Assembly: GCA_965248695.1 (NCBI GenBank)
Contig: CBDFKD010000002.1
Coordinates: 5,568,001 to 5,632,000 of the forward strand
Origin: Acidobacteriota bacterium
GTDB lineage: Bacteria; Acidobacteriota; UBA890; WLXD01
Direction of reading: 5' to 3'
Length of the DNA stretch: 64,000 bases
The notes under the pieces were generated by a model that saw only the letters and a program-made list of their open reading frames with translations, was not told the DNA's origin and made no database searches. Position 1 is the stretch's first letter; each line of letters opens with the position of its first letter. Of this stretch, positions 38,791-59,413 are shown in pieces. Both the position numbers and the translations under genes were made by a program.

Positions 38791-39101
38791 GAATATCCTC
38801 TCGACTGGTCTGTCATGGTCATTTTGTCCACTTGGCGATCCCGAACGCCGACGATCGGCGTTCGTCGCACCGCATCGCGCCAGGCTCACCGCTCGAATCA
38901 GATCTCCTGACAGGACGCTAGCGCCTGAGCACGCTACAGCGACCGGAGCGACGATTCCAGCGACCGTGTCTTCGTCTTCCGGTTCTGCCCGCCGTTCGTC
39001 TTGAGCAGCCCCACGCATCAGTGGTTGAATCCAGGCGTCCCGGTACCGACCCCGCCAAGCACGTGACTCGACGGGCGGATCTGGGGAACCCTAGGGTACA
39101 G

Positions 39102-40151: not shown

Positions 40152-40224
40152 CCGGGCGGTAAGCGGAGGGGTCACCAAGGCCCGTCAAGCGGCCCGACAT
40201 CACTACCAACGTGGGAGCGGAGCC

Positions 40225-41478: not shown

Positions 41479-41593
41479 GGTGTCGTGAGATACGTCTTGC
41501 ATCCGATCGCCAGCCTGGGCGGCATGGTACGGTAGCGTGGGTCGCAAGCGTAGGCACGGCACCTCGACGAGCTGAGCTCCCGAAGACAGGAGA

Positions 41594-42865: not shown

Positions 42866-43002
42866 GGGAGGGCCACCACGACGCGCCCATCGTCGCTGAC
42901 GCTCAACCTCGATGGCTTCGGTTACAAGGTCTCGATTCTCGCGCCTGACTACTGGTTGCCTTCGATCGGACAAGACGAGCTCACACGGACAGGAGAACGA
43001 CG

Positions 43003-44289
43003 ATGGGCGACGATCGACACGGCGGGGATCGGACCGAACTACGACTACCTGGCGACGAGCCCACGAAGGTCCGAGCAGGCCTGGCGCTGGCGGGAGTGCT
43101 AGCGACGGTCCTGCTGGTAGCGGTTTCCGTGCTGAGCACGACCGCGACCGTCGACGCAGCGTCGCATCCGCCGATCCAGGCGCAGCAGGCCGCCGACGTT
43201 GCGACCCCCGACACCGAGTCGATGAGCAACGAGGAGCTCGCAACGCTGCTGGCGTCGGCGGAGCTAGGCCCCTACGCGCGTGAGGACGCTCTCGCCGACA
43301 CGTTCTCGATGGAGCGCGCCGCCAGCTTCCTCGATCGGGTTGCCGTGACCTGGGGTGAGAAGTACGGCTGCGTCACCTGCCATACGAACGGTTTGTATCT
43401 CACCGCGCCGCCCGAGATCTTCGGCGAGCGCCGTGCTTTCGAGATCACACACAGCCAGGCTGCCCGTTTCGTGCGCTCCTGGCGCGCCGACGACGTGCCT
43501 GAACACGATGCAAAACACCTACAGCAGACGTACTCCCCACACGTGGTGAACATCATTGGCACGTCGGCGTTCTTGGCCATCAACGAGGCCCAGTCGGGTG
43601 CAAGCGAGCTCAGCGACATCGCCGCGGAGGCGCTCGACCACGCCTGGTCGCTACAGGACGAAGGCGGCCATTGGGCCGATTGGACGGTAAACAACTGGCC
43701 ACCGTTCGAGTCCGATTTTCACTTCCCCGTCACGCTGATGGCGATCGCCACCGGCATGGCTCCGGGCGACTACCCCAGCACCGATGCTGCTGTACAGGGG
43801 ATGCGCAGGATTCGCGCCCACATCGCCGCCAATCCGCCCGAGTTCGCCCACAACCGCGGCATGCTGCTATGGGCCGGCAGTGTCAACGAGGGGCTGATCA
43901 GCGACGCCGATCGCCAACTTTGGATCGACGAGCTTCTCGGTCTGCAGCGTGACGACGGTGGTTGGGCTTCCGGCGGGCTGGGCGTGTGGCGCATGCGCAA
44001 GGGTCTTCCTTCCGATCCCCCGGTCACCGTCGAGAGCGACGGCTACGGCACCGGCTTCGTCATCTATGTCCTGCGACAGGCGGGCGTGCCGGCTTCGAAC
44101 GCGGCAATTCAGCGCGGTGTCGGCTGGTTGAAGACGAACCAGCGCGCCGGCGGGTACTGGTGGACCCAGTCCATACGCAACAGCTTCACAACCTCGAACT
44201 ACCTTACTCACGCCGGCACGACGTTCGCGCTCAAAGCGCTCGCGGCCACTGCGCTCGAAACGGGGGGCGTCGCCGATCTCGAGCGTTGA
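43003..44289 (+). CDS. exported prenyltransferase / squalene-cyclase-repeat protein with CxxCH (paralog 2)
   Basis: Tandem near-copy of 41594-42865 with the same motifs. Confidence 0.8.
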   Translation: MGDDRHGGDRTELRLPGDEPTKVRAGLALAGVLATVLLVAVSVLSTTATVDAASHPPIQAQQAADVATPDTESMSNEELATLLASAELGPYAREDALADTFSMERAASFLDRVAVTWGEKYGCVTCHTNGLYLTAPPEIFGERRAFEITHSQAARFVRSWRADDVPEHDAKHLQQTYSPHVVNIIGTSAFLAINEAQSGASELSDIAAEALDHAWSLQDEGGHWADWTVNNWPPFESDFHFPVTLMAIATGMAPGDYPSTDAAVQGMRRIRAHIAANPPEFAHNRGMLLWAGSVNEGLISDADRQLWIDELLGLQRDDGGWASGGLGVWRMRKGLPSDPPVTVESDGYGTGFVIYVLRQAGVPASNAAIQRGVGWLKTNQRAGGYWWTQSIRNSFTTSNYLTHAGTTFALKALAATALETGGVADLER

Positions 44290-44319
44290 ACGCCACCGTC
44301 GGAGAGCTTGGAGGACGGG

Positions 44320-45654
44320 ATGAGCAAGAAGGCGGAAGGAACGACGTCGACTCGGCGTGACTTGGCGCGCAGCGCCGTTGTCGCGTACACCGCCGCCGCC
44401 ATGGGGGTTCCCCGGAACCTGCTTGCCAGGGCGATCCGAGAGCCGGCCCAGATGGGCGGTGGGGGTTCGGGGCCCGCTGGGTTTCGAAGAAACACAGTAG
44501 ACGCCGAGTACTATACGGACGAAGCGCGCTACCTGTTCGATGAGCGCCTGGTGGCCGACCACTTCTGGCAAATGGTCGACCACGAGAGCAGGATCCCTGA
44601 TGCGGGCGACTTCTTCGTGTTCGAGTTCGGTCGCACCGAGAGCATCCTGATCGTGCGCGGGCGGGACAACGCAGTCCGCGGCTTCTACAACGTCTGCCGC
44701 CACCGCGGCTCGCGCCTGTGTCGTCACGATGCGGATCCGATCCCCGGGGATCCGCGCCTGTCAGTCAAGCAGCTCAGCCAGTCGGGCAGCTCACCGGTGT
44801 TCCGCTGCCCGTACCACGCCTGGACGTACGACACCGAAGGCAGCCTGATCTATGCCTACGGCATGCAGGAGGACTTCGACCCGGCCGACAACGGTCTGAT
44901 CCCCTGCCACCTTCGCGTGGCAGACGGCTTCATCTTCGTGAACCTGTCGCCCGAGCCGGAGGCGCCGGAGTTCGAGTCAGCGATCGAGCCCTTCCGCACC
45001 GATGTGGGCGGACCCCACGGCACCGCCCAGCTGAAGGTCGGCGAACGGGTCTACGTTCCGATGCACGCCAACTGGAAGCTGGCGCTGGAGAACTTCCTGG
45101 AGTGCTACCACTGCGGTCCGTCGCACGACTACCTCTGCCACGTGTACCCGGGCTCTGACCTCACAACCCCTTCGGAGAGACAAGGAAAGGGTGGCCTGCT
45201 CAACGGATTCGTCAGCGGCACGATGGACGGCAAGGCGGCGGCACCGTTGCTGCCCGCCTTCGAGGGCACCGATGCGAGGATGACGTCACGCACGTCGACC
45301 GAAACGGCCACCGGTTGGTCGACCGGCTACTGGCTCGGGTACGACGATTACGTCTTCGCGGTGAGGTTCACTCCTCGCGATATCAAGCTCACCGACGTGG
45401 AGTGCATCTGGCTGGTGCATCCGGATGCGAAGCGCGGCGTGGACTACGACGCCGAGAAGCTCAAGGAGGTGTGGCTCGTCACGCTGCTGGAGGACATCTG
45501 GTTGTGCGAGAACAACCACGACGGAATGCGCTCCGGCGCCTACCGACCCGGGCGCTACGCCACCCATGAGATCGGCAGCGTCTTGCCGGCCAATTTCATC
45601 CACTGGTACATGAACGCCGTGGCGGGTGACGTCGACCGCGTGATGCCGTACTAA
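44320..45654 (+). CDS. Rieske non-heme iron oxygenase alpha subunit with Tat-like signal (R1)
   Basis: STRRDLA + h-region; NVCRHRGS...CPYHAWTY; NWKLALENFLECYHCGPSH; EDIWLCE. Confidence 0.9.
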   Translation: MSKKAEGTTSTRRDLARSAVVAYTAAAMGVPRNLLARAIREPAQMGGGGSGPAGFRRNTVDAEYYTDEARYLFDERLVADHFWQMVDHESRIPDAGDFFVFEFGRTESILIVRGRDNAVRGFYNVCRHRGSRLCRHDADPIPGDPRLSVKQLSQSGSSPVFRCPYHAWTYDTEGSLIYAYGMQEDFDPADNGLIPCHLRVADGFIFVNLSPEPEAPEFESAIEPFRTDVGGPHGTAQLKVGERVYVPMHANWKLALENFLECYHCGPSHDYLCHVYPGSDLTTPSERQGKGGLLNGFVSGTMDGKAAAPLLPAFEGTDARMTSRTSTETATGWSTGYWLGYDDYVFAVRFTPRDIKLTDVECIWLVHPDAKRGVDYDAEKLKEVWLVTLLEDIWLCENNHDGMRSGAYRPGRYATHEIGSVLPANFIHWYMNAVAGDVDRVMPY

Positions 45655-45688
45655 CGCGGCGAGCGAGCTCCGCCTACCCGAGGTGCAC

Positions 45689-47623
45689 ATGAGCGATCGG
45701 GATCTTGATTTGGGGATGCGCCGGGAGATCACCCGTCGCGATTTCGTCTCCGGTGTCAGCGTAGCGCTGAGCGGTAGCCTCGCATTGCCGTGGGCGCAGA
45801 CCCACGCCCTGGCGGCCCCCGGGGCGCCGGCAGCACCCCTGCAGACGACGGCGGCCGCGTATCCACCGATCCGGACCGGTATGCGTGGCAGTCACGAAGG
45901 CTCCTACGAGGTTGCGCACCAGCTTCGAGATGGCATGCGCTGGGACGACCCGGAGGAGACCGGTGAGTTCTACGACCTGATCGTGGTCGGGGGCGGCATC
46001 AGTGGCCTGGCGGCGGCGTGGTTTTACCGAGAAGCGGTTCCCGAGGCCCGCATCCTGATCCTCGACAACCACGACGACTTCGGCGGTCACGCCAAGCGCA
46101 ACGAGTTCTGGCACGAAGGTCGGATGTTGCTATCGCACGGCGGCACCATCGAGATTGTCAACTTGAACCGCTACGGCAGCGCCGCCAAGCGCCTGATTCA
46201 TGCCCTCGGGATCGACGTACGGCGCTACCCGGAGTTCTTGAATCGCGAGTTGTATTCCTCACTCGGGTTGCGGAGCTCGGTGTTCTTCGACCGCGAGACC
46301 TTCGGCAGCGATCGCTTGTTGGTGGGCGAGGGTGAACCCTCCTGGCGCGAGTTTCTGGCGCGCGCGCCCCTGTCGGAGGCCGCCCGCGAACAGATCGTGC
46401 GATTGCACGAAACGAAGGTCGATTACCTGCCGGAGATGACGCTGCCGGAGAAGCGCGACCACCTCAGGCAAACCAGCTATGAGGATTTTCTCCTCGATGC
46501 CGCCAAGATCAGCCCGGAGGCGGTCTCCTTTCTCGAAACGTCCAACGGCTGGGCGATCGGTCTCGATGCCATCTCTGCCTGGGTAGGCGTCGGTAGCGGA
46601 TGGGCCGGCACCGAGGGGCTCGGGTTCGGTGAGGACGACAGCTGGGGAGCTGAAACCGCCGAGGAGCGACTCTACTTCCAGTTTCCCGATGGCAACTCGT
46701 CGATCGCGCGCCTGCTCGTTCGGTCGCTGGTGCCGGGGGTAGCGCCGGGCAGCACGATGGAGGACATCGTCGCCGCCGAATTCGACTACGGGCAACTCGA
46801 CCGCGAGGACTCTGCCGCCCGCATTCGTCTCGACAGCACGGCAGTAAGGGTGCGCCACCTGGGAGACCCTCAGACCGCCGCCGAGGTCGAAGTCACCTAC
46901 GTCCGCGGCGGGCGTGCCGCCCGCGTCCGCGCCGGCCAGTGTGTCCTTGCCTGCTACAACGCCGTCATCCCTCACATCTGCGACGAGCTTCCGAACCGCC
47001 AAAAGCAAGCGCTGTCGCAGGCGTTGAAGGCGCCCCTCATCTACACGAATGTTCTGATCCGCAACTGGACCGCCTTCGCCAAGCTCGGCGTGGACGCCGT
47101 GCGCTGCCCGGGGAGCTACTTCGACGACATCAACCTGAAGCCGCCGATCAGCATCGGAGGGTACCGACACGCTGAAACGCCCGACGAGCCCACCGTGGTG
47201 CGCTTGTGGCGAGCCCCCTTGGTGCCGGAAGCTCGTGGGCTTTCCGCGGCCGAGCAGTGGAAGGCCGGCCGCCGGGGTCTATTGACGACGACGTTCGAGA
47301 CCTTCGAGCGCAAGATCAGGGACCAACTCGGCCGGATACTGTCGGCCGGGGGCTTCGATCCGGCGCGCGACATCGAGGCCATTACCGTGAACCGCTGGCC
47401 ACACGGCTACGCCTACGGCCACGATCCGGAGACCGGCCAGGTGGCGTGGAGGCTCGACGAGCTACCGCCCGAGCGTCGTCCGTGGCTTGCCGCCCGACGG
47501 CCCTTCGGCCGCATCGCGATCGCCAACTCGGACGCGATGGCGGACGCCATGACCGAGGGTGCGATCGGCGCGGCGCATCTGGCGGTCGAGGCGCTCGTCG
47601 CGCTTGAGACGACGCCACGATGA
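45689..47623 (+). CDS. Tat-exported spermidine dehydrogenase (SpdH)-like flavoprotein (S1)
   Basis: TRRDFVS signal; YPP..TGMRGSH, VGGGISGL, DNHDDFGGHAKRNEF, FPDGN, ITVNRWPHGY, IANSD. Confidence 0.87.
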   Translation: MSDRDLDLGMRREITRRDFVSGVSVALSGSLALPWAQTHALAAPGAPAAPLQTTAAAYPPIRTGMRGSHEGSYEVAHQLRDGMRWDDPEETGEFYDLIVVGGGISGLAAAWFYREAVPEARILILDNHDDFGGHAKRNEFWHEGRMLLSHGGTIEIVNLNRYGSAAKRLIHALGIDVRRYPEFLNRELYSSLGLRSSVFFDRETFGSDRLLVGEGEPSWREFLARAPLSEAAREQIVRLHETKVDYLPEMTLPEKRDHLRQTSYEDFLLDAAKISPEAVSFLETSNGWAIGLDAISAWVGVGSGWAGTEGLGFGEDDSWGAETAEERLYFQFPDGNSSIARLLVRSLVPGVAPGSTMEDIVAAEFDYGQLDREDSAARIRLDSTAVRVRHLGDPQTAAEVEVTYVRGGRAARVRAGQCVLACYNAVIPHICDELPNRQKQALSQALKAPLIYTNVLIRNWTAFAKLGVDAVRCPGSYFDDINLKPPISIGGYRHAETPDEPTVVRLWRAPLVPEARGLSAAEQWKAGRRGLLTTTFETFERKIRDQLGRILSAGGFDPARDIEAITVNRWPHGYAYGHDPETGQVAWRLDELPPERRPWLAARRPFGRIAIANSDAMADAMTEGAIGAAHLAVEALVALETTPR

Positions 47624-47696
47624 AACATTCGTGAGTTCCGGGCCGCCGGCCCTCACTCCGTTGCGCCGAACTCTCGTACCATCCGCCGACCCGCGC

Positions 47697-49034
47697 TCAG
47701 ATGCCGCTGAGGTAATCGAGCTCGAGACGGGCCGTGCTATTGCCGAAGCTCTCTACTGGAACACCCAGCTTGTCGAGCAGCGCGACATGCAGGTTCGCGA
47801 GCGGCGTGCCCTCGCCGTAGCGAATGTACTGTCCACCCTCGAGCTGGCCGGCGCCCCCACCGGCTAGCACGATCGGCAGATCGTTGACGATATGGCCGTT
47901 GCCGTCGTTCATGCCGGCGCCGAACTTGATGACCATCTGATCCAGCAACGACCCGTCGCCGTCCGGCGTCGCGGCCAGCTTCTCCAGCAGATGGCTGAAC
48001 AGCCTCGCATGGTAGCGGTTGATCTGGGCACACTTGTCCATCTTCTCGGGGTCATTGCGGTGGTGCGAGATCGGGTGGTGCGAGTCGGGTACACCGATCT
48101 CGGGGTAGGTGCGGCCGTTGAACTCCCTTCCCATCATGAACGTGCAGACGCGAGTGATGTCGGCCTGGTAAGCAATTACCTGCAGGTCGAACATCAACTT
48201 CGCATGCTCCGCGTAGTCGCCTGGAACGCCGGCTGGTCGGTCGAACGCCGGCAGCTCGACGTTCTGCTCGACCGCTCGCTGAATGCGCTGCTCCACCGCG
48301 CGCACGCTCTCCAAGTATCCAGTCAGTCGGGATTGGTCGCTCGGACCGACCTTGTTCTTGAGCAGCGCGACCTCAGCGAGCACCGAATCGAGAATGCTGG
48401 TCTTGCGGAGTGCGCTGGCGCGGCGCGCCGCCGGATCGGTGGTGTCTTCGCCGAACAAGCGCTCGAAGACGGCCGCAGGATCGGTCTCCATCGGCAGCGG
48501 CGAAGTCGGTCCGGCCCAGGAGATCGTTCCCGTGTAGATACAGCTTCCATCGTCGCAAGTCGCCGCGGCGTCCACCGTATCCAGAGCGAGCTCGAGCGAT
48601 GGCAGCTGTGTTGTCCGACCCAGTTCCCGGGCCGCCAGCTGGTCCATCGAGATGCCGGCTTTGAGCGCACGGCTGGGGTGCACGTTGGTCAGGAACTTCG
48701 TGCTCGCCCTCGCGTGAACCGCGGAGGGGGCGCCGGGTGGCCTGATCGGGTCGCTGTCGAGCCCGCCCAACACCTTCAGTCGATCGCGAAACGGCTCCAG
48801 CGGTTTCAAGGCGTACGAAAACTCGAAGTCGGAACCCACCTCGGCGGGGAACCAACGATCCGGGATCACGCCGTTCGGCACATAGACGGCGCCAAAGCGT
48901 TTTATCGCTTTGGCCGGCGTCTGACTGAGAGCGGTGGCCGCAGGCACCATCGCGTCCAGCAGCGGAAGTGCGACGGCAGCGCCCAACCCGCGTAGTACCG
49001 TGCGCCGGGGAATGGCCTTCTTGGCGATGATCAT
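47697..49034 (-). CDS. DUF1552 (HXXSHH) family protein with twin-arginine-like N-terminus
   Basis: IPRRTVLRGLGAAVALPLLDAM, YVPNG, SMDQ, HHPISHH; start placed at ATG 49034. Confidence 0.88.
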   Translation of the reverse strand: MIIAKKAIPRRTVLRGLGAAVALPLLDAMVPAATALSQTPAKAIKRFGAVYVPNGVIPDRWFPAEVGSDFEFSYALKPLEPFRDRLKVLGGLDSDPIRPPGAPSAVHARASTKFLTNVHPSRALKAGISMDQLAARELGRTTQLPSLELALDTVDAAATCDDGSCIYTGTISWAGPTSPLPMETDPAAVFERLFGEDTTDPAARRASALRKTSILDSVLAEVALLKNKVGPSDQSRLTGYLESVRAVEQRIQRAVEQNVELPAFDRPAGVPGDYAEHAKLMFDLQVIAYQADITRVCTFMMGREFNGRTYPEIGVPDSHHPISHHRNDPEKMDKCAQINRYHARLFSHLLEKLAATPDGDGSLLDQMVIKFGAGMNDGNGHIVNDLPIVLAGGGAGQLEGGQYIRYGEGTPLANLHVALLDKLGVPVESFGNSTARLELDYLSGI

Positions 49035-49343
49035 GACGCAGTGCTCTCCATCTGAAGCGGCGCTCTCCCCATCTGGAATGGCTCGCTGGCGACGATTCCC
49101 TGGATGATAGCCGACCACCGGCAATCGGTGGCGGCGGCGCGCCGCAGAATCCTACGAATGGAGGGATTGTCGTAGTACTCGAGTCCTCGGCCGAACGGGT
49201 CAGATCGCCTGGATGCTCGACGTAGGCCTCAAGAGTCCGCTCTTCACGTTGTCGTAGCTGGATCTCGGGGGTAGAGTTCACCTCCTCGTTGGTTCACGGA
49301 GCGCGCTGAACGGGAAACGTCGGGCGCCGGGTAAGAGCAGACA

Positions 49344-51401
49344 ATGCGCCGAATAAGGCTCGCTAGCTCCTTTGTGGCAATCACGCTGTTGGCGGGGCTT
49401 TCGCACGCCGGCGGGCAGCTCTCCCAGACCGAGAGCCAGATCCTGGGCGCGCTGGACAAAGACAGGACCCTCGCCCTCACCCGCCGCCTCTCGGAAGAGC
49501 TGGTCAAGAACGACTCCGGTGGGGGCGCCGGCTCGGCCATCGCCGGCAGCGCCGATGAACGCCTCTTGGCCGGCTTCATCGAGGCCGAAATGACCCGGAT
49601 GGGTCTGGACGTGCGGCGCGAGAGCTTTCCCGTGCACGCCTACGACTACGGCAAAGTACTGCTGCGGGCAGCGGGCAGACAGCTGGCGGCGATTACCCAA
49701 CATTCCGGCGGTGGCACCTGGGGCACGGCCGAGCGCGTGCCGTACACCAAGGGCAACACGTCTGCTGGACGGGTCTTGCGAGCGGCCTTGCTCGATGCCG
49801 GAGAAGGCTGGGTTAATGACTACGCTGATCTGAGCGAGGTGCCCGGCAACGCCGTGCTCGTGCGCCGCGGAGACGACTGGCTCAACAGCCAGGTCGTGAT
49901 GGAGGCGGCGGAACAGGGAGCCTCCGCGATCTTGCTCTACGACTACGACAGCGGTGCGGAGGCCCCACAGGACTCGATCCAGCAGATGAGCATCGTCTAC
50001 CGCGACCCGATCCCGACCGTAACGATCAGCAACAGCGATGCGGCATGGCTCAAGGAGCGCCTCGCCGAGGGCGAGGTGATGATCGAGCTGGAAAACCGGG
50101 TCGACGTCGAATACGGCTCCTCAGAGAACGTCATCGGCATGATCCGGGGCCGGGAGTATCCAGACGAATGGATCATCGTCTCGGCGCACCACGACCGCTG
50201 GTGGCAGGGGGCCCAGGACGACAGCGTCGGGGTGGCCGTCATGCTGGAGTTGGCGCGCGTGATCTCGGAGGGCTACCGGCCGCGGCGCAGCTTCCTCTTC
50301 ATTGGCTTCGGCAGCGAAGAGGTCGGAGGGCTGTGGACCCAGTTCGACTGGCTGGCGGGCTCGCATGCGTTCATCCGGGCACACCCCGAGATCACCTCGC
50401 GGTTGGCCTATGCCTTCAACCTGGACATCGCTGGATGGACGGGGCGCGAGGGCCGCGTGAACGCCACCCCCGACCAGGTTGCCTTCCAACGCGAACTGCT
50501 GGCGGACCTCGGCCTCGACGAGCGGGTGACGGTGCGTGAGCACGTCAGTACCGGCGTCGATGCCTGGTCACTCGGAGGTGTTCGGGGCGGAGCGGTGGCA
50601 ACCCTGAGCTGGACGGGTGACGTCCCCTACAGCCGCTACTACCACACGCAGCACGATGTCTATCGAGCCGAGGACTATGCCAACCTGGAGCACGATCTGC
50701 GACACGGGGCACTCGGCGTGTTGCGGATGGACCAGGCTGTCGTCCTGCCCGTCGGCTTTTCGGAGATCGCCGGCTGGGTCGCCAAAGAGCTCGAGAGGCT
50801 CGAGCAGACGCTCTCGGGTCTCTCGGCGCCGACCGACCTGCTTCGCGACGCCGGACAGGCGGCAGAGCGCCTGCGCGTGCAGGGCGACAGGTTGACCGCG
50901 TCGTCTGCGTCTTTGGCGGATGGAGATCACGCGGCCATGGTCAACGCCCTCTTGATGAACACCCGGCATGATCTCGTTCCCTGGCTTCTGAACACGGAAG
51001 CGCGTCTGCGCGGGAGCGGGCACGCGGACGATGTCGTCGCCCTCCAGAGGGCGCGTATCGCTGCCGCGGATGGAGATGCCGAGGCTGCAGCTACTGCGCT
51101 CGAAGAAGTCAACACGATGCTGTGGGGCAAGCGGGTCTCGTCCGGGACCTATCGCGCCGAGAGGCTGCTCTCCTACGAGCCAACCGGTTGGATGTGGGAG
51201 TTCGACCAGCACCCGCGTCCGGTCAGCCCCGAGCTCTACACCATCTACTCGAAGCTCCGGGCAGGGCGCGGCGCCGATTCGGTCGCCGGGATCGGCAGGC
51301 TCGAGGCGCAGGCGGAGGGCTCGCTGCGGGAGGCCTTGTTCATCGTCAGCGGCAAGCTCAGGGACGCCGCGAGGGCGCTCGCCGACACTCCTCTACCGTA
51401 G
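49344..51401 (+). CDS. secreted M28 family metallopeptidase with PA domain
   Basis: Signal peptide; SAHHD, GAQDD, GSEE, NLD and YYHT zinc-ligand motifs. Confidence 0.87.
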   Translation: MRRIRLASSFVAITLLAGLSHAGGQLSQTESQILGALDKDRTLALTRRLSEELVKNDSGGGAGSAIAGSADERLLAGFIEAEMTRMGLDVRRESFPVHAYDYGKVLLRAAGRQLAAITQHSGGGTWGTAERVPYTKGNTSAGRVLRAALLDAGEGWVNDYADLSEVPGNAVLVRRGDDWLNSQVVMEAAEQGASAILLYDYDSGAEAPQDSIQQMSIVYRDPIPTVTISNSDAAWLKERLAEGEVMIELENRVDVEYGSSENVIGMIRGREYPDEWIIVSAHHDRWWQGAQDDSVGVAVMLELARVISEGYRPRRSFLFIGFGSEEVGGLWTQFDWLAGSHAFIRAHPEITSRLAYAFNLDIAGWTGREGRVNATPDQVAFQRELLADLGLDERVTVREHVSTGVDAWSLGGVRGGAVATLSWTGDVPYSRYYHTQHDVYRAEDYANLEHDLRHGALGVLRMDQAVVLPVGFSEIAGWVAKELERLEQTLSGLSAPTDLLRDAGQAAERLRVQGDRLTASSASLADGDHAAMVNALLMNTRHDLVPWLLNTEARLRGSGHADDVVALQRARIAAADGDAEAAATALEEVNTMLWGKRVSSGTYRAERLLSYEPTGWMWEFDQHPRPVSPELYTIYSKLRAGRGADSVAGIGRLEAQAEGSLREALFIVSGKLRDAARALADTPLP

Positions 51402-51567
51402 GCTCGGGTGCCTCTAATCGGAAGAGTCGGTCGGCTCCCTACTGTTAACCGGCGCCCGGTCGTGATACGCCTGAGCCAGACTCCCGACGGGGACGAAGCC
51501 CGATTCGGAGAACGTGGTCGGGAGCTCTTGCACCGCGCCACTTCAGCCCGTTGATCGAGGAGAGTCC

Positions 51568-52953
51568 ATGAGCGCAAGGAAAGGCAAGCGCAAGAAAGAC
51601 GGCATGAGCCGCCGCGACTTCGCCAAGTCCTCGGTTGCCGCTGGTGCCGCTGCCGTCACGCTTCCGAAAGAGCTACGTGCCGAGACGGCCTCGGGGAAGA
51701 CAAGACAGAGCTTGCGGGATGGCTGGACAGCGGGCACCACCATTCCGGCCGAGTATTACGTCGACGAGAGGCACTACGTCGCAGATGAGCGTTTCCTCGC
51801 CGAGAACATCTGGCTCTACGTCGACCACGAAAGCCGCATTCCGAACGTCGGCGACTACTTCGTGTTCGAGATGGGGCGCTCGGAGAGCGTCATCATCGTA
51901 CGCGGCAACGACGACGGCCAGATCCGGGCCTTTCACAATGTTTGCCGCCACCGTGGCTCGCGGCTCTGCCGACACGATGCCGATTCGATCCCCGGCGACC
52001 CGCGGCTGTCAGTCAAGCAGCTGGGGCAGAGCGGCAACTCGCCCGTGTTTCGCTGCCCTTACCACGCCTGGACCTATGACGTGGACGGCAACCTGATCTA
52101 CGCCTACGGCATGCAAGAGGACTTCGACCCAGCGGACAACGGCTTGAACCCGTGTCACCTGCGAACGTCGGAGGGCAGCATCTTCGTCAACCTGTCGCAG
52201 CAGGACGAGCCACCGGACTTCGAGTCCGCCGTCTCGGCACAACAGCTCATGGGCCGGTACTACGGACACGCGGGCCTGAAGATCGCCGCCCGGGAAAGCC
52301 ACCTGGTCCATGCCAACTGGAAGCTGGTGTTGGAAAACTTCTCCGAGTGCTATCACTGCGGACCAACCCACAAGGGGTTGACCACCACCCACAACTACGA
52401 CTACGACGCCACGCCCGAGCAGATGGCGGTGCGCAACGCGGCGGTGGGCGAATGGCTGACGCCGGCGGGCAGGGTACGGCCCGAGGGTCCCGAGCAGGGG
52501 CCGCGGCTGACAGGGAACCTCAACCCCGGCTTCGTCACGGGGTCCAGCGACGGCAAGTCGGTGGCACCGTTGCTTCCAACCATCGAGCAGCCAACTCACG
52601 GCACCAACGAGGCATACACGGGTTACTACACCGGCTACTGGCAATCCTATGACGACTACGTCGTCGGGCTCCGGTTCACGCCTCGAGACGTCGCGCTCAC
52701 CGACGCTGAGCTCATCTGGCTGGTGCACCCGGACGCCGTGGAGGGAAGAGACTACGATCTGGACACCCTCAAGGCCTTCTGGCAGATCATCGTCCAAGAG
52801 GATATCTGGGTGATCGGCAACAACCACAGGGGCGTGCTCTCCGGCGCCTATCGTTCAGGTCCGTACTCTACCCATGAGAATTCCACGGCCGATTTCATCA
52901 AGTGGTACATGGACGAGGTCGTGACGGCGGGAGGGCGGCCAGACCTGGCATAG
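51568..52953 (+). CDS. Rieske non-heme iron oxygenase alpha subunit with Tat signal (R2)
   Basis: MSRRDFAKSSVAAGAAAVTLPKELRA; CRH...CPYH; NWKLVLENFSECYHCGPTH; QEDIW. Confidence 0.9.
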   Translation: MSARKGKRKKDGMSRRDFAKSSVAAGAAAVTLPKELRAETASGKTRQSLRDGWTAGTTIPAEYYVDERHYVADERFLAENIWLYVDHESRIPNVGDYFVFEMGRSESVIIVRGNDDGQIRAFHNVCRHRGSRLCRHDADSIPGDPRLSVKQLGQSGNSPVFRCPYHAWTYDVDGNLIYAYGMQEDFDPADNGLNPCHLRTSEGSIFVNLSQQDEPPDFESAVSAQQLMGRYYGHAGLKIAARESHLVHANWKLVLENFSECYHCGPTHKGLTTTHNYDYDATPEQMAVRNAAVGEWLTPAGRVRPEGPEQGPRLTGNLNPGFVTGSSDGKSVAPLLPTIEQPTHGTNEAYTGYYTGYWQSYDDYVVGLRFTPRDVALTDAELIWLVHPDAVEGRDYDLDTLKAFWQIIVQEDIWVIGNNHRGVLSGAYRSGPYSTHENSTADFIKWYMDEVVTAGGRPDLA

Positions 52954-53005
52954 GTCGCTTCCCCACAATTCAGAGTGCATCGGCCCAGAGAAGTTGGAGG
53001 GCGGG

Positions 53006-54328
53006 ATGAGCAAGAACGAGGAAGTCACCACGTCGACCCGGCGTGACCTGGCGCGCAGCGCAGTCGCTGCGTATACCGCCGCCGCCCTCGGGCTGCCGCG
53101 GAACCTGTTTGCCCGTGCGATTCCGGATACAGGCCAGATGGGGGGCGGAGAATCCGGCCCCGCGGGGTGGGTACGAGACACGATCGACGCCGAGTACTAC
53201 GTCGACGAAGCGCGCTGGCAGGTCGACGAGCGCCTGGTGGCCGACCACTTCTGGCAGATGGTCGACCACGTGAGCAGGATCCCCGAGCCGGGCGACTTCT
53301 TCGTGTTCGAGTTCGGTCGCTCCGAGTCCATCTTGATCGTGCGCGGGCGAGACAACGAAGTCCGCGGCTTCTACAACGTCTGCCGCCACCGCGGCTCGCG
53401 CCTGTGCCGTCACGATGCCGATCCGATTCCCGAGGACCCGCGCCTGTCGGTCAAGCAGCTGGGCCAGTCAGGTAGCTCGCCGGTGTTCCGCTGCCCGTAC
53501 CACGCCTGGACCTACGACACCGAGGGCAGCCTGATCTACGCCTACGGCATGCAGGACGACTTCGACCCGGCCGAAAACGGCCTGATCCCCTGCCACCTTC
53601 GTGTGGCCGAGGGCTTCATCTTCGTGAACCTGTCGCGCGAGGCGGAGCCGCCGGAGTTCGAGACGGCGATCGAGCCGTTCCGCGAGGTGGGTCAGTCACA
53701 CGGCATGGCCGACCTGAAGGTGGCCGAGCGCGTCTTCGTGCCGTGCCGGTCCAACTGGAAGCTGGCGCTCGAGAACTTCCTGGAGTGCTACCACTGTGGG
53801 CCGTCGCACGACTACCTGTGCCACGTGTTCCCGAACATCGATCTCTCGCTACCGGAATCTCAAAGACCTGGGAGCGGGATGCCCGCGAGCTTCGTCAGCG
53901 CCACGATGGACGGCAAGCCGGCGGCACCGTTGCTGCCCGCCTTCGAGCGCAGAACTGGCCGGAAGATGGGAAGCGACGTGGCGACGGGTTGGTCGACCGG
54001 TTACTGGTCTCCCAACGAGGACTACGTCTTTGCAGTCCGATTCACCCCCCGCGATGTGGACCTCACCGACGTGGAGTGCACCTGGCTCGTGCACCCGGAC
54101 GCGAAGCGCGGCGTGGACTACGACCCGGAGAGGCTGAAGGAAGTCTGGTACGTCACGCTGCTGGAGGACATCTGGTTGTGCGAGAACAACCACATCGGGA
54201 TCCGCTCAGGCGCCTACCGCCCCGGACGCTACGCCACCCACGAGATCGGCCGGATCCTGCCGGCCAACTTCATGCACTGGTACGTGAAGGCCGTGGCGGG
54301 TGACGTCGGCCGAGTGATGCCTTACTGA
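53006..54328 (+). CDS. Rieske non-heme iron oxygenase alpha subunit with Tat-like signal (R3)
   Basis: STRRDLA; same Rieske and mononuclear-Fe motifs as R1. Confidence 0.9.
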   Translation: MSKNEEVTTSTRRDLARSAVAAYTAAALGLPRNLFARAIPDTGQMGGGESGPAGWVRDTIDAEYYVDEARWQVDERLVADHFWQMVDHVSRIPEPGDFFVFEFGRSESILIVRGRDNEVRGFYNVCRHRGSRLCRHDADPIPEDPRLSVKQLGQSGSSPVFRCPYHAWTYDTEGSLIYAYGMQDDFDPAENGLIPCHLRVAEGFIFVNLSREAEPPEFETAIEPFREVGQSHGMADLKVAERVFVPCRSNWKLALENFLECYHCGPSHDYLCHVFPNIDLSLPESQRPGSGMPASFVSATMDGKPAAPLLPAFERRTGRKMGSDVATGWSTGYWSPNEDYVFAVRFTPRDVDLTDVECTWLVHPDAKRGVDYDPERLKEVWYVTLLEDIWLCENNHIGIRSGAYRPGRYATHEIGRILPANFMHWYVKAVAGDVGRVMPY

Positions 54329-54345
54329 CGAGCTTGGAGGATGGG

Positions 54346-55728
54346 ATGAGCAAGAAAGAGGAAGGCAACAAATCGACTCGGCGTGACTTGGCGCGTAGCG
54401 CTGTTGTCGGCTACACCGCCGCCGCCCTCGGGCTGCCAGCTCACCTGCTTGGCAGGGAAGTTGCGGAAGTGGGCCAGATGGCCAGCGGGGAATCGGGCGT
54501 CGCTGGGTCGCTCGGAGCCACGATTGACGCCGAGTACTACACGGACGCAGAGCGCTGGGAGTTCGATGAGCGCCTGGTGGCCGACCACTTCTGGCAAATG
54601 GTCGACCACGAGAGCAGGATCCCGAATACAGGCGACTTCTTCGTGTTCGAGTTCGGTCGCAGCGAGAGCATCCTGATCGTGCGCGGGCGGGACAACGAAG
54701 TCCGCGGCTTCTATAACGTGTGCCGCCACCGCGGCTCGCGCCTGTGTCGTCACGATGCGGATGCGATCCCCCAGGATCCACGCCTGTCGGTCAAGCAGCT
54801 CAGCCAGTCGGGCAGCTCGCCGGTGTTCCGCTGCCCCTACCACGCCTGGACGTACGACACCGAAGGCAGCCTGATCTATGCCTACGGCATGCAGGAGGAC
54901 TTCGACCCGGCGGACAACGGTTTGATCCCCTGCCACCTGCGCATCGCGGACGGCATGATCTTCGTGAACCTGTCGCGAGAGCCGGAACCGCCAGAGTTCG
55001 AGACAGCAGTCGAGCCCTTCCGCCGCGATGTGGGCAGACCCCACGGCACCGCCGACTTGAAGGTCGGCGAGCGGGTCTACGTTGCGATGCACGCCAACTG
55101 GAAGCTGGCGCTGGAGAACTTCCTGGAGTGCTACCACTGCGGTCCGTCGCACGACTACCTGTGCTACGTGTACCCGGGCTCCGACTTCACCACGGAGTCC
55201 GAGAAACAGGGGAAGGGTGGGCTGCTCAACGGATTCGTCACCGGCACGATGGACGGCAAGGCGGCGGCACCGTTGCTGCCCGCCTTTGAGGGCACCGACG
55301 CGAGGACAACGTCACGCACGTCGACCGAGACGACGTCGGGTTGGTCGACCGGCTACTGGCTCGGGTACGACGATCACGTCTTCACGGTGAGGTTCACCCC
55401 CCGTGACGTCGATCTCACCGACGTGGAGTGCACCTGGCTGGTGCATCCGGATGCGAAGCGCGGCGTCGATTACGACCCCGAGAGGCTAAAGGAAGTGTGG
55501 CTCGTCACGCTGCTGGAGGACATCTGGTTGTGCGAGAACAACCACGCCGGCATTCGCTCAGGCGCCTACCAGCCTGGCCGCTACGCCACTCATGAGCGCA
55601 GCCCGTCCAGATTCATACAGTGGTATATGGCCGCCGTCGCGGGTGACATCGGGCCGGCGTGGAACCCACGGCGGTATGAGCGTCCGACTGCCCGCCTCGA
55701 GGGTCCGGACGATGCACTCTTGACCTGA
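54346..55728 (+). CDS. Rieske non-heme iron oxygenase alpha subunit with Tat-like signal (R4)
   Basis: STRRDLA; same motifs as R1; distinct C-terminal tail. Confidence 0.9.
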   Translation: MSKKEEGNKSTRRDLARSAVVGYTAAALGLPAHLLGREVAEVGQMASGESGVAGSLGATIDAEYYTDAERWEFDERLVADHFWQMVDHESRIPNTGDFFVFEFGRSESILIVRGRDNEVRGFYNVCRHRGSRLCRHDADAIPQDPRLSVKQLSQSGSSPVFRCPYHAWTYDTEGSLIYAYGMQEDFDPADNGLIPCHLRIADGMIFVNLSREPEPPEFETAVEPFRRDVGRPHGTADLKVGERVYVAMHANWKLALENFLECYHCGPSHDYLCYVYPGSDFTTESEKQGKGGLLNGFVTGTMDGKAAAPLLPAFEGTDARTTSRTSTETTSGWSTGYWLGYDDHVFTVRFTPRDVDLTDVECTWLVHPDAKRGVDYDPERLKEVWLVTLLEDIWLCENNHAGIRSGAYQPGRYATHERSPSRFIQWYMAAVAGDIGPAWNPRRYERPTARLEGPDDALLT

Positions 55729-55790
55729 ATCTCCGAGTTGCTGCATCAGGTAGCGACTGCGGGCAACCGAGCGCACTCCGCGCACCGAGG

Positions 55791-57725
55791 ATGCACATGA
55801 GAGATCGGGATCTTGATCTGGGAATGCACCGGGAGATCACCCGGCGTGATTTCGTCTCCGGTGTCAGCGTAGCGCTGAGCGGCAGCCTCGCATTGCCGTG
55901 GGCGCAGACGGGCGCCCTGGCTAACCCCACGGCTCCGGCACAAACCCCACAGTCCATGGCGGCCGCGTATCCACCGATCCGGACCGGTATGCGCGGCAGT
56001 CATGAAGGCTCCTACGAGGTCGCTCACCAGCTTCGAGATGGCATGCGCTGGGACAACCCGGAGGAGACGGGTGAGCTCTACGACCTGATCGTGGTCGGTG
56101 GCGGCATCAGCGGCCTCGCCTCGGCATGGTTTTATCGCGAAGCCGTCCCCGGGGCGCGCATCCTGATCCTCGATAACCACGACGACTTCGGCGGTCATGC
56201 CAAGCGCAACGAGTTCTGGCACGAAGACCAGATGGAGCTGTCACATGGCGGCACCATCTTCATCTCCAACTTGCATCGGTACAGTGCAGCAGCCCAGCGC
56301 CTGATCCGCGGGATCGGCATCGATGTGAACCGCTACTCCGAGTTCCTCGACGAGGATCTGTACAGCTCGCTCGGCATGGGCGGGTCGGTCTTCTTCGACC
56401 GCGAGACGTTCGGCACCGATCGTCTGCTGTTGGGTGAAGGCGAGCCATCTTGGCGCCAGTTTCTGGCGCACGCACCCTTGTCCGAGGCGGCGCGTGAGGA
56501 CCTCGTACGACTCCACGAATCGGACGTCGATTATCTGGCGCACCTCAGCTTGGAGGAGAAGGTCGAGTACCTTCAGCACACGAGCTACGAGGACTTTCTC
56601 TTGCAGGTGGTCAAGATCAGCCCGGAGGCGGTCTCCTTCCTCCGGACGTCCAACGGCTGGGCGATCGGCATCGACGCCATCTCCGCCTGGAGTGGCGCTG
56701 GCAGCCGGCCAGGAACCACCGGGCTCGGTTTGGGTCGCGACGATGCGGCCGCCGAACCGCGCGAGGAGCGCGCGTTCTTCCAGTTCCCGGATGGCAACTC
56801 TTCCGTCGCGCGCCTGCTCGTCCGGTCGCTGATCCCCGACGTCGCTCCCGGCACCACGATGGAGGATGTCGTCGCTGCACGATTCGATTACGGCAAGCTC
56901 GATCGGGAAGACTCGCCCGTCCGCGTGCGCCTGGAGAGCACAGCGGTGCGAGTAGGCCACCGGGGCGATCCGCGCACTGCCGAAGAAGTCGAGGTCACCT
57001 ACGTCCGCCACGGCCGCGCCCAGCGAGCTCGCGCCGGCCGCTGTGTGCTTGCCTGCTACAACGCGGTCATTCCTCATATTTGCGACGAGCTGCCGGACAC
57101 GCAAGAGCACGCGCTATCGAATGCTCTCAAGGCGCCCCTTATCTACACCAACGTCCTGATCCGCAACTGGACCGCCTTCCAGAAGCTCGGCACGCACGAT
57201 GTGCGCTGCCCGGGCAGTTATTTCGACGACGTCAATCTGACACCGCCGATCAGCATTGGAGGCTACCGACACGCAAGCACTCCCGACGAGCCCACCGTGG
57301 TGCGCATGTGGCGCGCCCCGCTGGTGCCCGAGGCCCGCGGGCAGTCCGCGGCGGAGCAATGGAAAGCCGCCCGCCAGAGTCTGGTGATGACGACGTTCGA
57401 GACCTTCGAGCGCAAGATCAGGGATCAGCTCGGCCGCATACTCTCCACCGGAGGCTTCGACCCGGCGCGCGACATCGAGGCGATCACCGTGAACCGCTGG
57501 CCACACGGCTATGCCTACGGCCACGATCTGGAGACCGGTCAGATCGCATGGAGGCTCGATGAGGTACCGCCCGAGCGCTCTTCGTGGATCGTCGCCCGCC
57601 AGCGTTTCGGCCGCATCGGGATCGCCAACTCGGACGCGATGGCCGACGCCATGACCGAAGGTGCGATCGGCGCGGCGCATCTGGCGGTCGAGGCGCTCAT
57701 TGCCCCCGAGACAGCGCCATTGTGA
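55791..57725 (+). CDS. Tat-exported spermidine dehydrogenase (SpdH)-like flavoprotein (S2)
   Basis: Paralog of 45689-47623 with the same motifs. Confidence 0.87.
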   Translation: MHMRDRDLDLGMHREITRRDFVSGVSVALSGSLALPWAQTGALANPTAPAQTPQSMAAAYPPIRTGMRGSHEGSYEVAHQLRDGMRWDNPEETGELYDLIVVGGGISGLASAWFYREAVPGARILILDNHDDFGGHAKRNEFWHEDQMELSHGGTIFISNLHRYSAAAQRLIRGIGIDVNRYSEFLDEDLYSSLGMGGSVFFDRETFGTDRLLLGEGEPSWRQFLAHAPLSEAAREDLVRLHESDVDYLAHLSLEEKVEYLQHTSYEDFLLQVVKISPEAVSFLRTSNGWAIGIDAISAWSGAGSRPGTTGLGLGRDDAAAEPREERAFFQFPDGNSSVARLLVRSLIPDVAPGTTMEDVVAARFDYGKLDREDSPVRVRLESTAVRVGHRGDPRTAEEVEVTYVRHGRAQRARAGRCVLACYNAVIPHICDELPDTQEHALSNALKAPLIYTNVLIRNWTAFQKLGTHDVRCPGSYFDDVNLTPPISIGGYRHASTPDEPTVVRMWRAPLVPEARGQSAAEQWKAARQSLVMTTFETFERKIRDQLGRILSTGGFDPARDIEAITVNRWPHGYAYGHDLETGQIAWRLDEVPPERSSWIVARQRFGRIGIANSDAMADAMTEGAIGAAHLAVEALIAPETAPL

Positions 57726-57751
57726 TCACAGCGGGCTCACCCCTGCGCAGG

Positions 57752-59413
57752 TTACCGCTCGTAGACGATCTCGCCACCGAGGATGGTGGCGTCGACCCCG
57801 ACGTCGAACATCTCCGCGCCCTGCAACCGCGTCGGGTCTGCCGACAACACGGCTAAGTCCCCGAGCTTGCCAACCGCAATCGAGCCCTTCTCTCGCTCTT
57901 CGAAGCCAGCGCGCGCCGCCCAGATGGTGTGCATCCGCAGGGCGTCCTCAAAGCCGAGCTCCTCGCCCGGCGGCGTGCCGCCGCCGTCCTCCGGCGAGGC
58001 CATCAACGAGGCGATTGCCCCCATGGGACTGAAGACCGGCACGGTGCCGGTGGCGTCCGACACCGCCACCGGGCGAACGCCCTGCTGAACGAGCGTGCGG
58101 TATCGCGGGACTGTCCGGGGCGTCGTGCGCGGCGGTGTGCTCCTCTGCTGCTGGGGCGTGATGATCGGGATGAGGCCGAGCTCCGCAAGGCGTTCGATGC
58201 GATCGAGCGCCTCGACGTCTCCGCCGTGCTCGAGCCGGTGGCGCATGGGCGTCGGATCGTGTTGCAGCGCCGCCTCGACGGCCGCCTCGGCGGCCATATG
58301 TCCCGGATCGGTGACCACGTGCATCATGAGCTGCACCCCGGCGGTATGCGCCCGAAGCACGAACTCGTCGAGCTCCGGTTGTGTCCACTTGAAGTCGGTA
58401 AAGGCGCGACCCAGACCATCGCTGCCGGCGCCGTCGACGAAGATCTTGACGCCGCCGAAGCGGAACATGTCGTTGCCGAACCCTGACTGAAGCCCGATCT
58501 CCAAGAAGTGGTCGAGCCCGAACAGGTGCGGCACGTGGTAGTAGGCGCGCAGGCGAATCGGTAGCTCACCGGAAGCCTGCACCGCCTGGTCGGCCAGAAG
58601 ATCGGTTCCGGCCAGCGGCAACGTCTGGATCGAGGTAATCGCCTTGGCCACGAACAGCTCCGAGGCGTGAGCCCGGAGCGCTGCCTCGACCTCTGCGACC
58701 GTGTAGGCGGGCGGCAACGTCCAGATCTCCGTTGCGATACCTGTCGGATCTCCCCCAGGATCACGATGCACGAGCGCCCCCCGGGGCGCCGCGTCGTCCG
58801 AGTCCCAGAGACCGAGCTCCCGAAGACCTCGCGTGTTCACCATGCCGACGTGGAAGCCGGCGTAGAGGATCAGCGGGTGGTCCTCGGTGATGGCGTCAAG
58901 CTCGTGGCGATCGGGGAGCCGACCCTCCTCGACGCGGCCAGCCATGCCGAACGAACCCCGACCGATGATCCATCGTCCGTTGGGGCTCTCCGCCGCTTTC
59001 GACTGCAGCGCTGCCTTGATCTCGCGGAGACTGGTGAACGGAGGCGTGTGGCAGGCGACTTGATAGGCGCTCGCGTTGCACGCCATCTCGAAGTGGACGT
59101 GAGCATCGACGAAACCGGGGACGACCCCACGCCCGTCGGCGTCGAAGACGGGGGCTGTCCCGGCGGCCGCGCTCACAGCCTCGTTGCTGCCGACCAACGC
59201 GATGCGGCCAGCGCGTACGAGTACTGCCTCGGCTCGCGGTTGGTCCGTCTCGAGGGTCACGACGCTACCGTTGACCAGCGCCAGGTCCCGCGCCCAGCGG
59301 CCGCCGCCGCCAGCAGCCGGGCCCATGCCTGTCCCGGGCGCTCCGCAGCCGATCGGGAGCGTGGCCCCGACGCCTGCGGCGGCACCGATCTTGAGCAGGT
59401 CGCGTCGTCTCAT
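57752..59413 (-). CDS. Tat-exported (lipoprotein?) amidohydrolase, Amidohydro_3 family
   Basis: RRRDLLK signal, then LPIGC; PGFVDAHVH, GGVKIFVDG, RHRLEH; paralog of 36044-37696. Confidence 0.9.
   Translation of the reverse strand: MRRRDLLKIGAAAGVGATLPIGCGAPGTGMGPAAGGGGRWARDLALVNGSVVTLETDQPRAEAVLVRAGRIALVGSNEAVSAAAGTAPVFDADGRGVVPGFVDAHVHFEMACNASAYQVACHTPPFTSLREIKAALQSKAAESPNGRWIIGRGSFGMAGRVEEGRLPDRHELDAITEDHPLILYAGFHVGMVNTRGLRELGLWDSDDAAPRGALVHRDPGGDPTGIATEIWTLPPAYTVAEVEAALRAHASELFVAKAITSIQTLPLAGTDLLADQAVQASGELPIRLRAYYHVPHLFGLDHFLEIGLQSGFGNDMFRFGGVKIFVDGAGSDGLGRAFTDFKWTQPELDEFVLRAHTAGVQLMMHVVTDPGHMAAEAAVEAALQHDPTPMRHRLEHGGDVEALDRIERLAELGLIPIITPQQQRSTPPRTTPRTVPRYRTLVQQGVRPVAVSDATGTVPVFSPMGAIASLMASPEDGGGTPPGEELGFEDALRMHTIWAARAGFEEREKGSIAVGKLGDLAVLSADPTRLQGAEMFDVGVDATILGGEIVYER

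Follow-up and report, generated by a model that had tools for sequence, protein, structure and literature searches.

Glycine betaine, carnitine, and stachydrine are attacked by the two-component Rieske monooxygenases GbcAB, CntAB, and Stc2, respectively. Rieske oxygenases of this kind need two external electrons for each O2, and the gene gbcB lies beside gbcA, as cntB does beside cntA. To our knowledge, all described Rieske oxygenase systems use NAD(P)H-dependent electron-transfer components and are located in the cytoplasm or in plastids. The three monooxygenases are the nearest described relatives of four Rieske non-heme-iron oxygenase α subunits (R1 to R4) encoded in a 64,000-nucleotide stretch of the genome of an uncultured, soil-type Acidobacteriota bacterium (contig CBDFKD010000002.1 of assembly GCA_965248695.1, positions 5,568,001 to 5,632,000; hereafter, the window). 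R1 and R4 are each followed on the same strand by a gene for a dehydrogenase (S1 and S2) resembling SpdH, the spermidine dehydrogenase of Pseudomonas aeruginosa (PaSpdH; PA3713), which contains flavin adenine dinucleotide (FAD) as well as heme b, and all six proteins carry the motif of a twin-arginine translocation (Tat) signal. A sequence-only reading of the window had proposed that the SpdH-like protein occupies the place of the reductase. We propose, with about even confidence, that a dehydrogenase, a cytochrome, and a Rieske oxygenase form a periplasmic system in which R would receive its electrons from S, from the cytochrome, or from both.

Tat-type Rieske oxygenases and SpdH-like dehydrogenases of the window

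R1 (44308 to 45654, + strand) can start at a TTG at 44308 or, more likely, at the ATG at 44320, and its residues are numbered here on the 444-amino-acid form. R4 (54334 to 55728, +) is 84% identical to R1. R3 (52994 to 54328, +), with 80% identity to R1, falls into the R1/R4 clade of the R tree, and R2 (51514 to 52953, +) is a more divergent paralog, with 57% identity to R1. All four exceed the Pfam cutoff for the Rieske domain and reach 88 to 105 bits for Ring_hydroxyl_A, against a cutoff of 24.9. They are closest to the GbcA/Stc2/CntA group, with PDB entries 3n0q, 3vca and 4qup (Stc2), and 6y8j (CntA) as best structural matches. GbcA (NCBIfam NF058607) is the best curated family for R1 to R4, at 220.2, 236.2, 222.9, and 222.5 bits, respectively, far below its equivalog cutoff of 670 bits, which places all four outside that family. 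Their homologs in the database number ~5,500 and bear generic names only.

The Rieske ligands C126, H128, C163, and H166 of R1 (CxH...CxxH) are retained by all 82 aligned homologs, as are H264, H269, and the pair E391/D392 of the iron site, one of which, E391 or D392, would be the acidic ligand of the 2-His-1-carboxylate center. The R proteins also keep the iron motif NWK..EN..ECYHC..H. The spacing between CxH and CxxH is 34 residues in 119 of 120 R homologs and 17 to 19 residues in 67 of 69 relatives that lack a twin-arginine signal; two loci, L025 and L079, have the 17-residue spacing yet match a loose twin-arginine regular expression. We take the resulting 17-residue insertion between the ligand motifs to be, next to the signal, the second marker of a Tat-type R clade.

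In every R protein of the window, a twin-arginine motif is followed by a hydrophobic stretch. The motif reads STRRDLARSAV in R1, R3, and R4 and MSRRDFAKSSVAAGAAAV in R2, whose signal region is MSRRDFAKSSVAAGAAAVTLP; that of S1 and S2 is ITRRDFVSGVSVALSG, with ITRRDF in the signal of S1. The two arginines are invariant in all 82 aligned R homologs (47 to 85% identity). Of the top 120 homologs in the database, 11 have sequences that begin inside or after the signal; the remaining 109 all have RRx[FLVIM] within their first 90 residues. Within the genome itself, 17 of 19 R genes encode the RRx[FLVIM] motif, and two TatC genes are present (C2:4929448-4930077 and C2:4398780-4399403; 215 and 161 bits). 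By motif reading, both R and S thus have the S/T-R-R-x-F-L-K-like motif and hydrophobic region of Tat substrates, as the sequence-only reading had claimed for both partners, and they are predicted to be periplasmic. According to the available text of one report, PaSpdH is an experimentally validated Tat substrate (PMC6085387).

It could instead be that R is not exported, or is held at the membrane only, its twin-arginine region being an uncleaved anchor or a feature unrelated to export, and that its donor is cytoplasmic or membrane bound. The hydrophobic region of R1, R3, and R4 is indeed weaker (SAVVAYTAAAMGVP) and has no clear AxA cleavage site, export is read from motifs, and the Rieske protein of the bc1 complex retains its Tat signal as an anchor (PMC6085387, as far as its text was available). 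We nevertheless consider this very unlikely: besides the invariant arginines, the pattern SRRDFAK-AAGAAAVALP is retained in R down to 47% identity, and the neighboring S, DAO-family, amidohydrolase (two genes), and DUF1552 proteins of the window all carry twin-arginine signals of their own. Even an anchored R would turn its catalytic domain to the periplasm.

S1 (45683 to 47623, +; GTG start at 45683, alternative ATG at 45689) and S2 (55791 to 57725, +) are 81% identical and match Pfam NAD_binding_8/DAO. S1 is homologous over its full length to the solved structure of PaSpdH (PDB 7D9F-J; E value of 1.5e-141 with 7d9f), its residues 16 to 636 aligning with residues 3 to 617 of 7d9i, and the FAD-binding motif GGGxSG is kept in both S1 and S2. 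Three histidines of S1 (H71, H79, and H574) are shared by all 64 aligned homologs. In PaSpdH, the heme b ligands are given as His54 and His562 in the text available to us (PMC12564564), and with the numbering anchored on the PA3713 N terminus as printed in the accessible portion of PMC6085387, these align with S1 H79 (EVAH) and H574 (NRWPHGY). The sequence-only reading had tentatively named the GSH and NRWPHGY histidines as the heme ligands; both are kept in S1 and S2, and NRWPHGY does supply a ligand, but the GSH histidine (S1 H71; PaSpdH His46) is conserved without being a reported ligand, and the EVAH histidine takes that part. The heme ligand motifs are kept in S1, in S2, and in most S paralogs of the genome.

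As described in the available text of PMC12564564, the heme b of PaSpdH lies at the protein surface and takes electrons from FAD. Cytochrome c, ferricyanide, dichlorophenolindophenol (DCIP), and electrodes can all be reduced by PaSpdH, whose catalytic onset on an electrode is -0.14 V versus Ag/AgCl. The 27 S paralogs of the genome are 37 to 81% identical to S1, so their substrates surely differ, to judge from this spread of sequences. One S paralog (C2:5174507-5176320) is broken into two frames and is probably a pseudogene.

S1 begins 28 bp after R1, or 34 bp with the ATG start, and S2 begins 62 bp after R4. The two spacers (45655 to 45688 and 55729 to 55790, +) share a conserved stretch of ~28 nucleotides directly ahead of the S start, and the second carries a 39-nucleotide insertion relative to the first; the spacing and the conserved DNA around the ribosome-binding site thus agree with what the sequence-only reading had noted. 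In a scan of positions 39000 to 58000, neither spacer contained a terminator-like site, promoter-like sites numbered zero, and terminator-like sites were at the level of shuffled sequence (13, versus 8.5 ± 3.2). That the cassette occurs twice stands, but the copies are not independent: the identities of R1 to R4 and of S1 to S2 mark them as one local duplication.

Pairing within the genome and in other lineages

The 5.89-Mb genome contains 19 paralogs of R and 27 of S. For 7 of the 19 R genes, an S gene is the immediate neighbor within 300 bp. Four of these adjacencies are R-S tandems (gaps of 8, 28, 62, and 84 bp), one has the order S-R-R, one is convergent, and one is divergent. In a permutation of crude gene calls (4,615 genes, among which 17 R and 27 S were recognized), random placement gave a mean of 0.20 adjacent pairs and a maximum of 4 in 20,000 trials, with three or more adjacencies in 0.1% of them, against the 7 observed. 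In the S tree, the R-adjacent proteins occupy at least four clades and are interspersed with unpaired ones, and the paired R proteins fall into three clades of the R tree. Pair E, whose R is near R1 and whose S is far from S1, shows that partners have been exchanged; pairs B1 and B2, like R1-S1 and R4-S2, represent one duplication. The pairing is therefore wider than the local duplication in the window. One further R paralog (C2:3037319-3038836, -, locus L011) is split by an in-frame TGA and is probably a pseudogene. A 194-amino-acid stand-alone Rieske-domain protein with no evident signal (L001:5213-5797, -) is encoded at a distance of two genes from pair D, in which S and R are convergent.

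Among 40 relatives examined (E value of 1e-40 or lower and more than 40% identity), Tat-type R was found in all four genomes of the same genus and in none of six genomes from other genera of the family. The four genomes have 24 to 31 S matches each and many R-S tandems, such as G001:C196 9313-10695/10814-12736, G002:C8 1148159-1149469/1149606-1151534, G003:C15 11429-12772/9430-11355, and G004:C12 18554-19879/16509-18416; these pairs were read by eye from match lists, and their count is incomplete. Loci L016 and L017 were assigned to the same genus as well, their S-match coordinates being identical to those of G004 and G001. In a scan of metagenome contigs, 5 of 80 loci belonged to the Tat-type clade, three of them too short to judge; the R-S locus L112 is close kin of pair B of this genome (77% identity for R and 84 to 87% for S). 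Among 401 sampled genomes of the phylum, with at most four candidates scored per genome, 8 from three genera contained the Tat-type clade, which in the order of G066 was present in 5 of 34 genomes.

Tat-type R occurs at nine loci outside the genus (L019, L028, L113, and L217 to L222), and a gene for a small c-type cytochrome is adjacent to R in all nine. It is immediately downstream and codirectional in six: in R-cytochrome c order at L217, L218, L221, and L222; as S-R-R-cytochrome c on one strand at L219 (gaps of 39, ~33, and 51 bp); and as S'-R-cytochrome c at L220, where S' is 30% identical to S1 and combines a Tat signal with the motifs AAH and NRWGHAY. An in-frame TGA in the R gene of L218 was considered as a possible recoded codon and rejected, as it is the terminal stop of the gene. 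The cytochrome gene and R converge at L019, L028, and L113. Loci L219 and L220 belong to two other Acidobacteriota families and carry a different S clade. A survey of gene neighborhoods, which the sequence-only reading had suggested, thus did find SpdH-like neighbors at these two loci, with pairing beyond one local duplication now seen in 7 of 19 R genes of this genome, in four same-genus genomes, and in two other families; the most constant neighbor of the exported R across lineages is the small c-type cytochrome rather than S.

These neighbor cytochromes form one family of 156 to 203 amino acids with a CxxCH motif and 46 to 63% mutual identity, those of L019, L028, and L113 being 58 to 63% identical to one another and 46 to 49% identical to a homolog in this genome. 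Cytochrome_CBB3 matches with E values of 1e-8 to 1e-9 were obtained for the cytochromes of L019, L028, L113, L107, L217, and L219, and a Met ligand is suggested by the motif TMPxD. The homolog in this genome (C2:5251520-5252119, equivalent to L107:5521-6120, -) follows an S gene (C2:5252121-5254121) at a distance of 1 bp, an arrangement also found in G001, G002, and G003, and it could be the physiological acceptor of its SpdH-like neighbor. With the R-S, R-cytochrome, and S-cytochrome adjacencies, the three genes are linked pairwise in every combination.

Adjacency might also arise as a by-product, without functional link, when two expanded families share genomic islands and are duplicated locally. 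R1-S1 and R4-S2 are a single duplication, as are B1 and B2; transposases are present at L009, L003, and L106; and L016 and L017 come from same-genus genomes, all of which fits such an origin. The permutation result (at most 4 adjacencies against 7), the pairing in at least four S clades, and the S-R-R-cytochrome c and S'-R-cytochrome c operons of two other families have already largely refuted it, and we give it a minimal probability. Taken together, the explanations other than the proposed chain and that of an uncoupled pathway (discussed below) account for a small share of our expectation.

Proposed electron supply of the putatively exported oxygenases

No FNR, Fer2, or Oxidored_FMN domain was found in any of the 119 proteins encoded within two genes of an R or S gene of this genome, and at no Tat-type R locus was a neighboring gene for an NAD(P)H reductase found. 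Genome-wide, the search consisted of two queries: a GbcB-like reductase returned only a 63-residue match (E value of 2e-6), and Oxidored_FMN/Pyr_redox_2 returned a single copy with an in-frame TAG, 35 kb from the nearest R. The signal-less cytoplasmic relatives differ. Immediate neighbors were scored at 36 of 70 such loci (four further loci, in which no R open reading frame was called, were dropped), and 13 of the 36 have a flavoprotein or FNR-type reductase there; by family, the neighbors include Oxidored_FMN plus Pyr_redox_2 at 12 loci, a DAO-FAO_M-GCV_T dehydrogenase at 5, an FNR-Fer2 reductase at 1, and an amino-oxidase at 1. An S-like match lies within 6 kb at 2 of the 70 loci (L021 and L034). 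The earlier suggestion that S occupies the gene position of a reductase thus holds insofar as that slot often houses a reductase in cytoplasmic relatives, but S does not obligatorily accompany R. On these counts, Tat-type R does not group with oxygenases supplied by an NAD(P)H-dependent reductase.

We picture the window as part of a periplasmic amine-degrading gene set, in which a clade of Rieske monooxygenases would have acquired a twin-arginine signal and the 17-residue insertion. Since the periplasm has no NAD(P)H, an R located there could not use the classical reductases, and its two electrons per turnover would come from heme proteins encoded alongside. Electrons might pass from an amine to the FAD of S, on to the surface heme b, and from there to R, with the small monoheme c-type cytochrome as carrier together with S or instead of it; such a sequence of dehydrogenase, carrier, and oxygenase would parallel the cytoplasmic chain of reductase, ferredoxin, and oxygenase. 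By analogy with GbcA, Stc2, and CntA, R may attack a C-N bond beyond the reach of flavoenzymes, for example in a quaternary or N-methyl amine. S may then oxidize the amine product of R, or a cosubstrate; where it oxidizes the product, two electrons would return to R and make the pair redox neutral. With confidence just short of even, we further propose that such Tat-exported, NAD(P)H-independent Rieske oxygenases, reduced via cytochrome c, the heme b of S, or both, constitute a new class of electron supply, in which the oxidation of an amine funds O2 activation on a related one, for instance a quaternary or N-methylated amine.

A predicted complex of mature R1 (residues 52 to 444) and S1 (residues 56 to 640), each with its own alignment, scored 0.00 twice; R entered it as a monomer, where Rieske oxygenases of this kind are normally trimers, and the result is used neither for nor against binding.

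Several observations weigh against such a chain. The first, which is the main caveat, concerns redox potential. Rieske clusters of ring-hydroxylating oxygenases lie at roughly -100 to -150 mV, and the CPYHAW box of the R proteins is presumably of the low-potential type. With its CxxCH...M pattern, the neighbor cytochrome resembles the His/Met class I type, and both the catalytic onset of PaSpdH and the potential of the cytochrome are probably well above that range. The second concerns linkage. In this genome, S is missing beside 12 of 19 R genes, and R beside 20 of 27 S genes; outside the genus, S or S' was found at only 2 of the 8 R loci whose upstream side is readable, and the cytochrome gene, being convergent at 3 of 9 loci, is not cotranscribed with R there. 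Seven relatives without Tat-type R carry S alone, in 1 or 2 copies, and S1-type proteins at 62 to 68% identity occur in metagenome-assembled genomes (MAGs) of Woeseiaceae, Pseudomonadales, and Lysobacterales, that is, in Proteobacteria without Tat-type R; in a Woeseia genome, 12 S-like matches, one of them a 65% homolog of S1, stand with no R or cytochrome nearby. In the gammaproteobacterial MAG G043 (L191:3863-9747, -), a codirectional string encodes a TonB-dependent receptor, a Tat-type S' (P0247), and a signal-less Rieske oxygenase (P0249), and such linkage across two compartments, which is of the pathway type, cannot reflect electron transfer. All of the adjacency evidence, finally, stems from a single phylum, with three or four genera represented, and close kin are not independent. 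In the genome that holds L191, a similar S-like gene also lies 3 kb upstream of another Rieske oxygenase (L034).

Much of this would equally suit R and S acting in one pathway without coupling, as consecutive or parallel periplasmic enzymes on N-alkylated amines, with R reduced by an unlinked donor and with S and the cytochrome feeding the respiratory chain. Apart from the potentials, such an arrangement would explain why S is found without R in other genomes, why the genus conserves an S-cytochrome c pair with no R, and why an exported S' can stand beside a signal-less Rieske oxygenase (L191) or an amino-oxidase beside a cytoplasmic relative (L088). Catabolic enzymes are also abundant nearby, among them amidohydrolases, peptidases, DAO-family and GCV_T proteins, and the glutathione-dependent formaldehyde-activating enzyme (GFA) next to S at L093 and L106. 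It would, however, leave an exported oxygenase with no electron source, as no other redox protein recurs beside R and the two genome queries revealed no classical reductase genes; where the cytochrome stands beside R with no S within 8 kb (L217 and L218), electron exchange with R is its only evident role. We therefore regard an uncoupled pathway as possible but rather unlikely.

The surroundings of the R and S genes are rich in exported enzymes. Upstream of R1-S1 and in the same gene string lies a Tat-signal DAO-family flavoprotein similar to N-methyltryptophan and sarcosine oxidases (40123 to 41478, +; N terminus ...DRRKFLKLTGAGALALAG; Pfam DAO, E value of 3.8e-49), which scores 208 bits against the NCBIfam N-methyl-L-tryptophan oxidase, below its cutoff of 257. 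Two tandem paralogs (41594 to 42865 and 43003 to 44289, +) fill the space up to R1; they make up paralog cluster c27, begin with a hydrophobic segment, and contain weak repeats like those of the squalene-hopene cyclase C terminus (SQHop_cyclase_C, E values of 5e-4 and 1e-4, both below the cutoff). Between S1 and the next plus-strand gene, a DUF1552 (HXXSHH) protein with a twin-arginine signal (N terminus IPRRTVLRGLGAAVALP; PF07586, E value of 1.4e-91) is encoded on the minus strand (47697 to 49124), a gene that was missing from the earlier gene map; a plus-strand open reading frame at 47892 to 48995, without Pfam match, was rejected in its favor and is probably spurious. As the DUF1552 gene is convergent on S1, R1-S1 forms the two-gene end of an operon, and, to judge from the gene order, the transcription unit begins upstream with the DAO-family oxidase and the two paralogs. 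A secreted M28 peptidase with a PA domain and a signal-like N terminus (49344 to 51401, +; Peptidase_M28, E value of 1.3e-24) precedes R2-R3-R4-S2. Four kilobases downstream of S2, a protein of the pyrroloquinoline quinone (PQQ)-dependent alcohol dehydrogenase family with a C-terminal cytochrome c domain is encoded (61563 to 63740, +), a further periplasmic dehydrogenase with its heme carrier built in.

Across the genome, the families recurring among the 119 neighbors of R and S are sulfatases, amidohydrolases, PQQ dehydrogenases, GFA, DAO, and peptidases. The R and S families, expanded to similar numbers in the four other genomes of the genus, are surrounded by numerous sulfatase, Amidohydro_3, PQQ dehydrogenase, and peptidase genes, most of whose products have export signals. 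GFA genes adjoin S at L093:6441-6851 and L106:8391-8771, and a third member of this paralog cluster (c6) lies near another S; a GCV_T aminomethyltransferase gene (L002:10563-11807) adjoins pair E. Such GFA and GCV_T neighbors hint at formaldehyde-releasing N-demethylation. NrfD-like and ActD genes, which encode subunits of alternative complex III, adjoin an S paralog at L097 (4484-6399, +, and 6470-8467, -).

Comparison with known systems

A full-text literature search, with subscription journals outside its coverage, returned no periplasmic or Tat-exported Rieske oxygenase and no link between one and spermidine dehydrogenase. Tat-type R is thus a Rieske oxygenase clade with a new compartment, as predicted from its signals, and probably with a new electron-supply chain. 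If this holds, a periplasmic clade differs from its relatives in compartment and electron source, which would extend the logic by which oxygenases are supplied with electrons, and SpdH-like enzymes would gain a physiological electron acceptor, none being identified in those parts of the SpdH literature that were examined. It would also account for a large lineage-specific gene expansion in soil Acidobacteriota, one genus of which would have diversified the module into ~19 oxygenases and 27 dehydrogenases, and biocatalysis or biosensing would gain substrate-driven oxygenases that do not depend on NADH.

Both Pfam domains, the Rieske ligands, and the iron motif link R to GbcA, CntA, and Stc2; R differs from them in its Tat signal, in the 17-residue insertion in the Rieske domain, and in that we found no NAD(P)H reductase partner. 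S shares with PaSpdH its full-length homology, the Tat signal, GGGxSG, and both heme b histidines. It differs in occurring as 27 paralogs, some of them operon partners of a Rieske oxygenase or a cytochrome c, a partnership that goes unreported in the portions of the SpdH literature consulted.

In three-component Rieske systems such as naphthalene dioxygenase, a flavoprotein, a one-electron carrier, and a Rieske oxygenase act together, as proposed here for the single operons of L219 and L220. In the proposed chain, the electron source would be an amine, a c-type cytochrome would stand in for the ferredoxin, and the site would be the periplasm; no β subunit gene was seen for R, and the three-component systems serve as a working analogy and not as a class to which R and S belong. 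Ammonia monooxygenase and hydroxylamine oxidoreductase provide a case in which an extracytoplasmic monooxygenase is paid for by the oxidation of its own product through a periplasmic heme enzyme and cytochromes. The logic of R and S would be similar, with the product of R as a putative substrate of S; the proteins and cofactors are unrelated. The small subunit of arsenite oxidase is a Tat-exported Rieske protein that exchanges electrons with cytochrome c. The Rieske subunit of the bc1 complex likewise has its cluster assembled in the cytoplasm, is moved by Tat, and has a periplasmic cytochrome c as partner, according to the available text of PMC6085387, a course that R may share. Both of those are high-potential subunits that serve electron transfer and have no catalytic iron domain, whereas R keeps the catalytic domain of an oxygenase.

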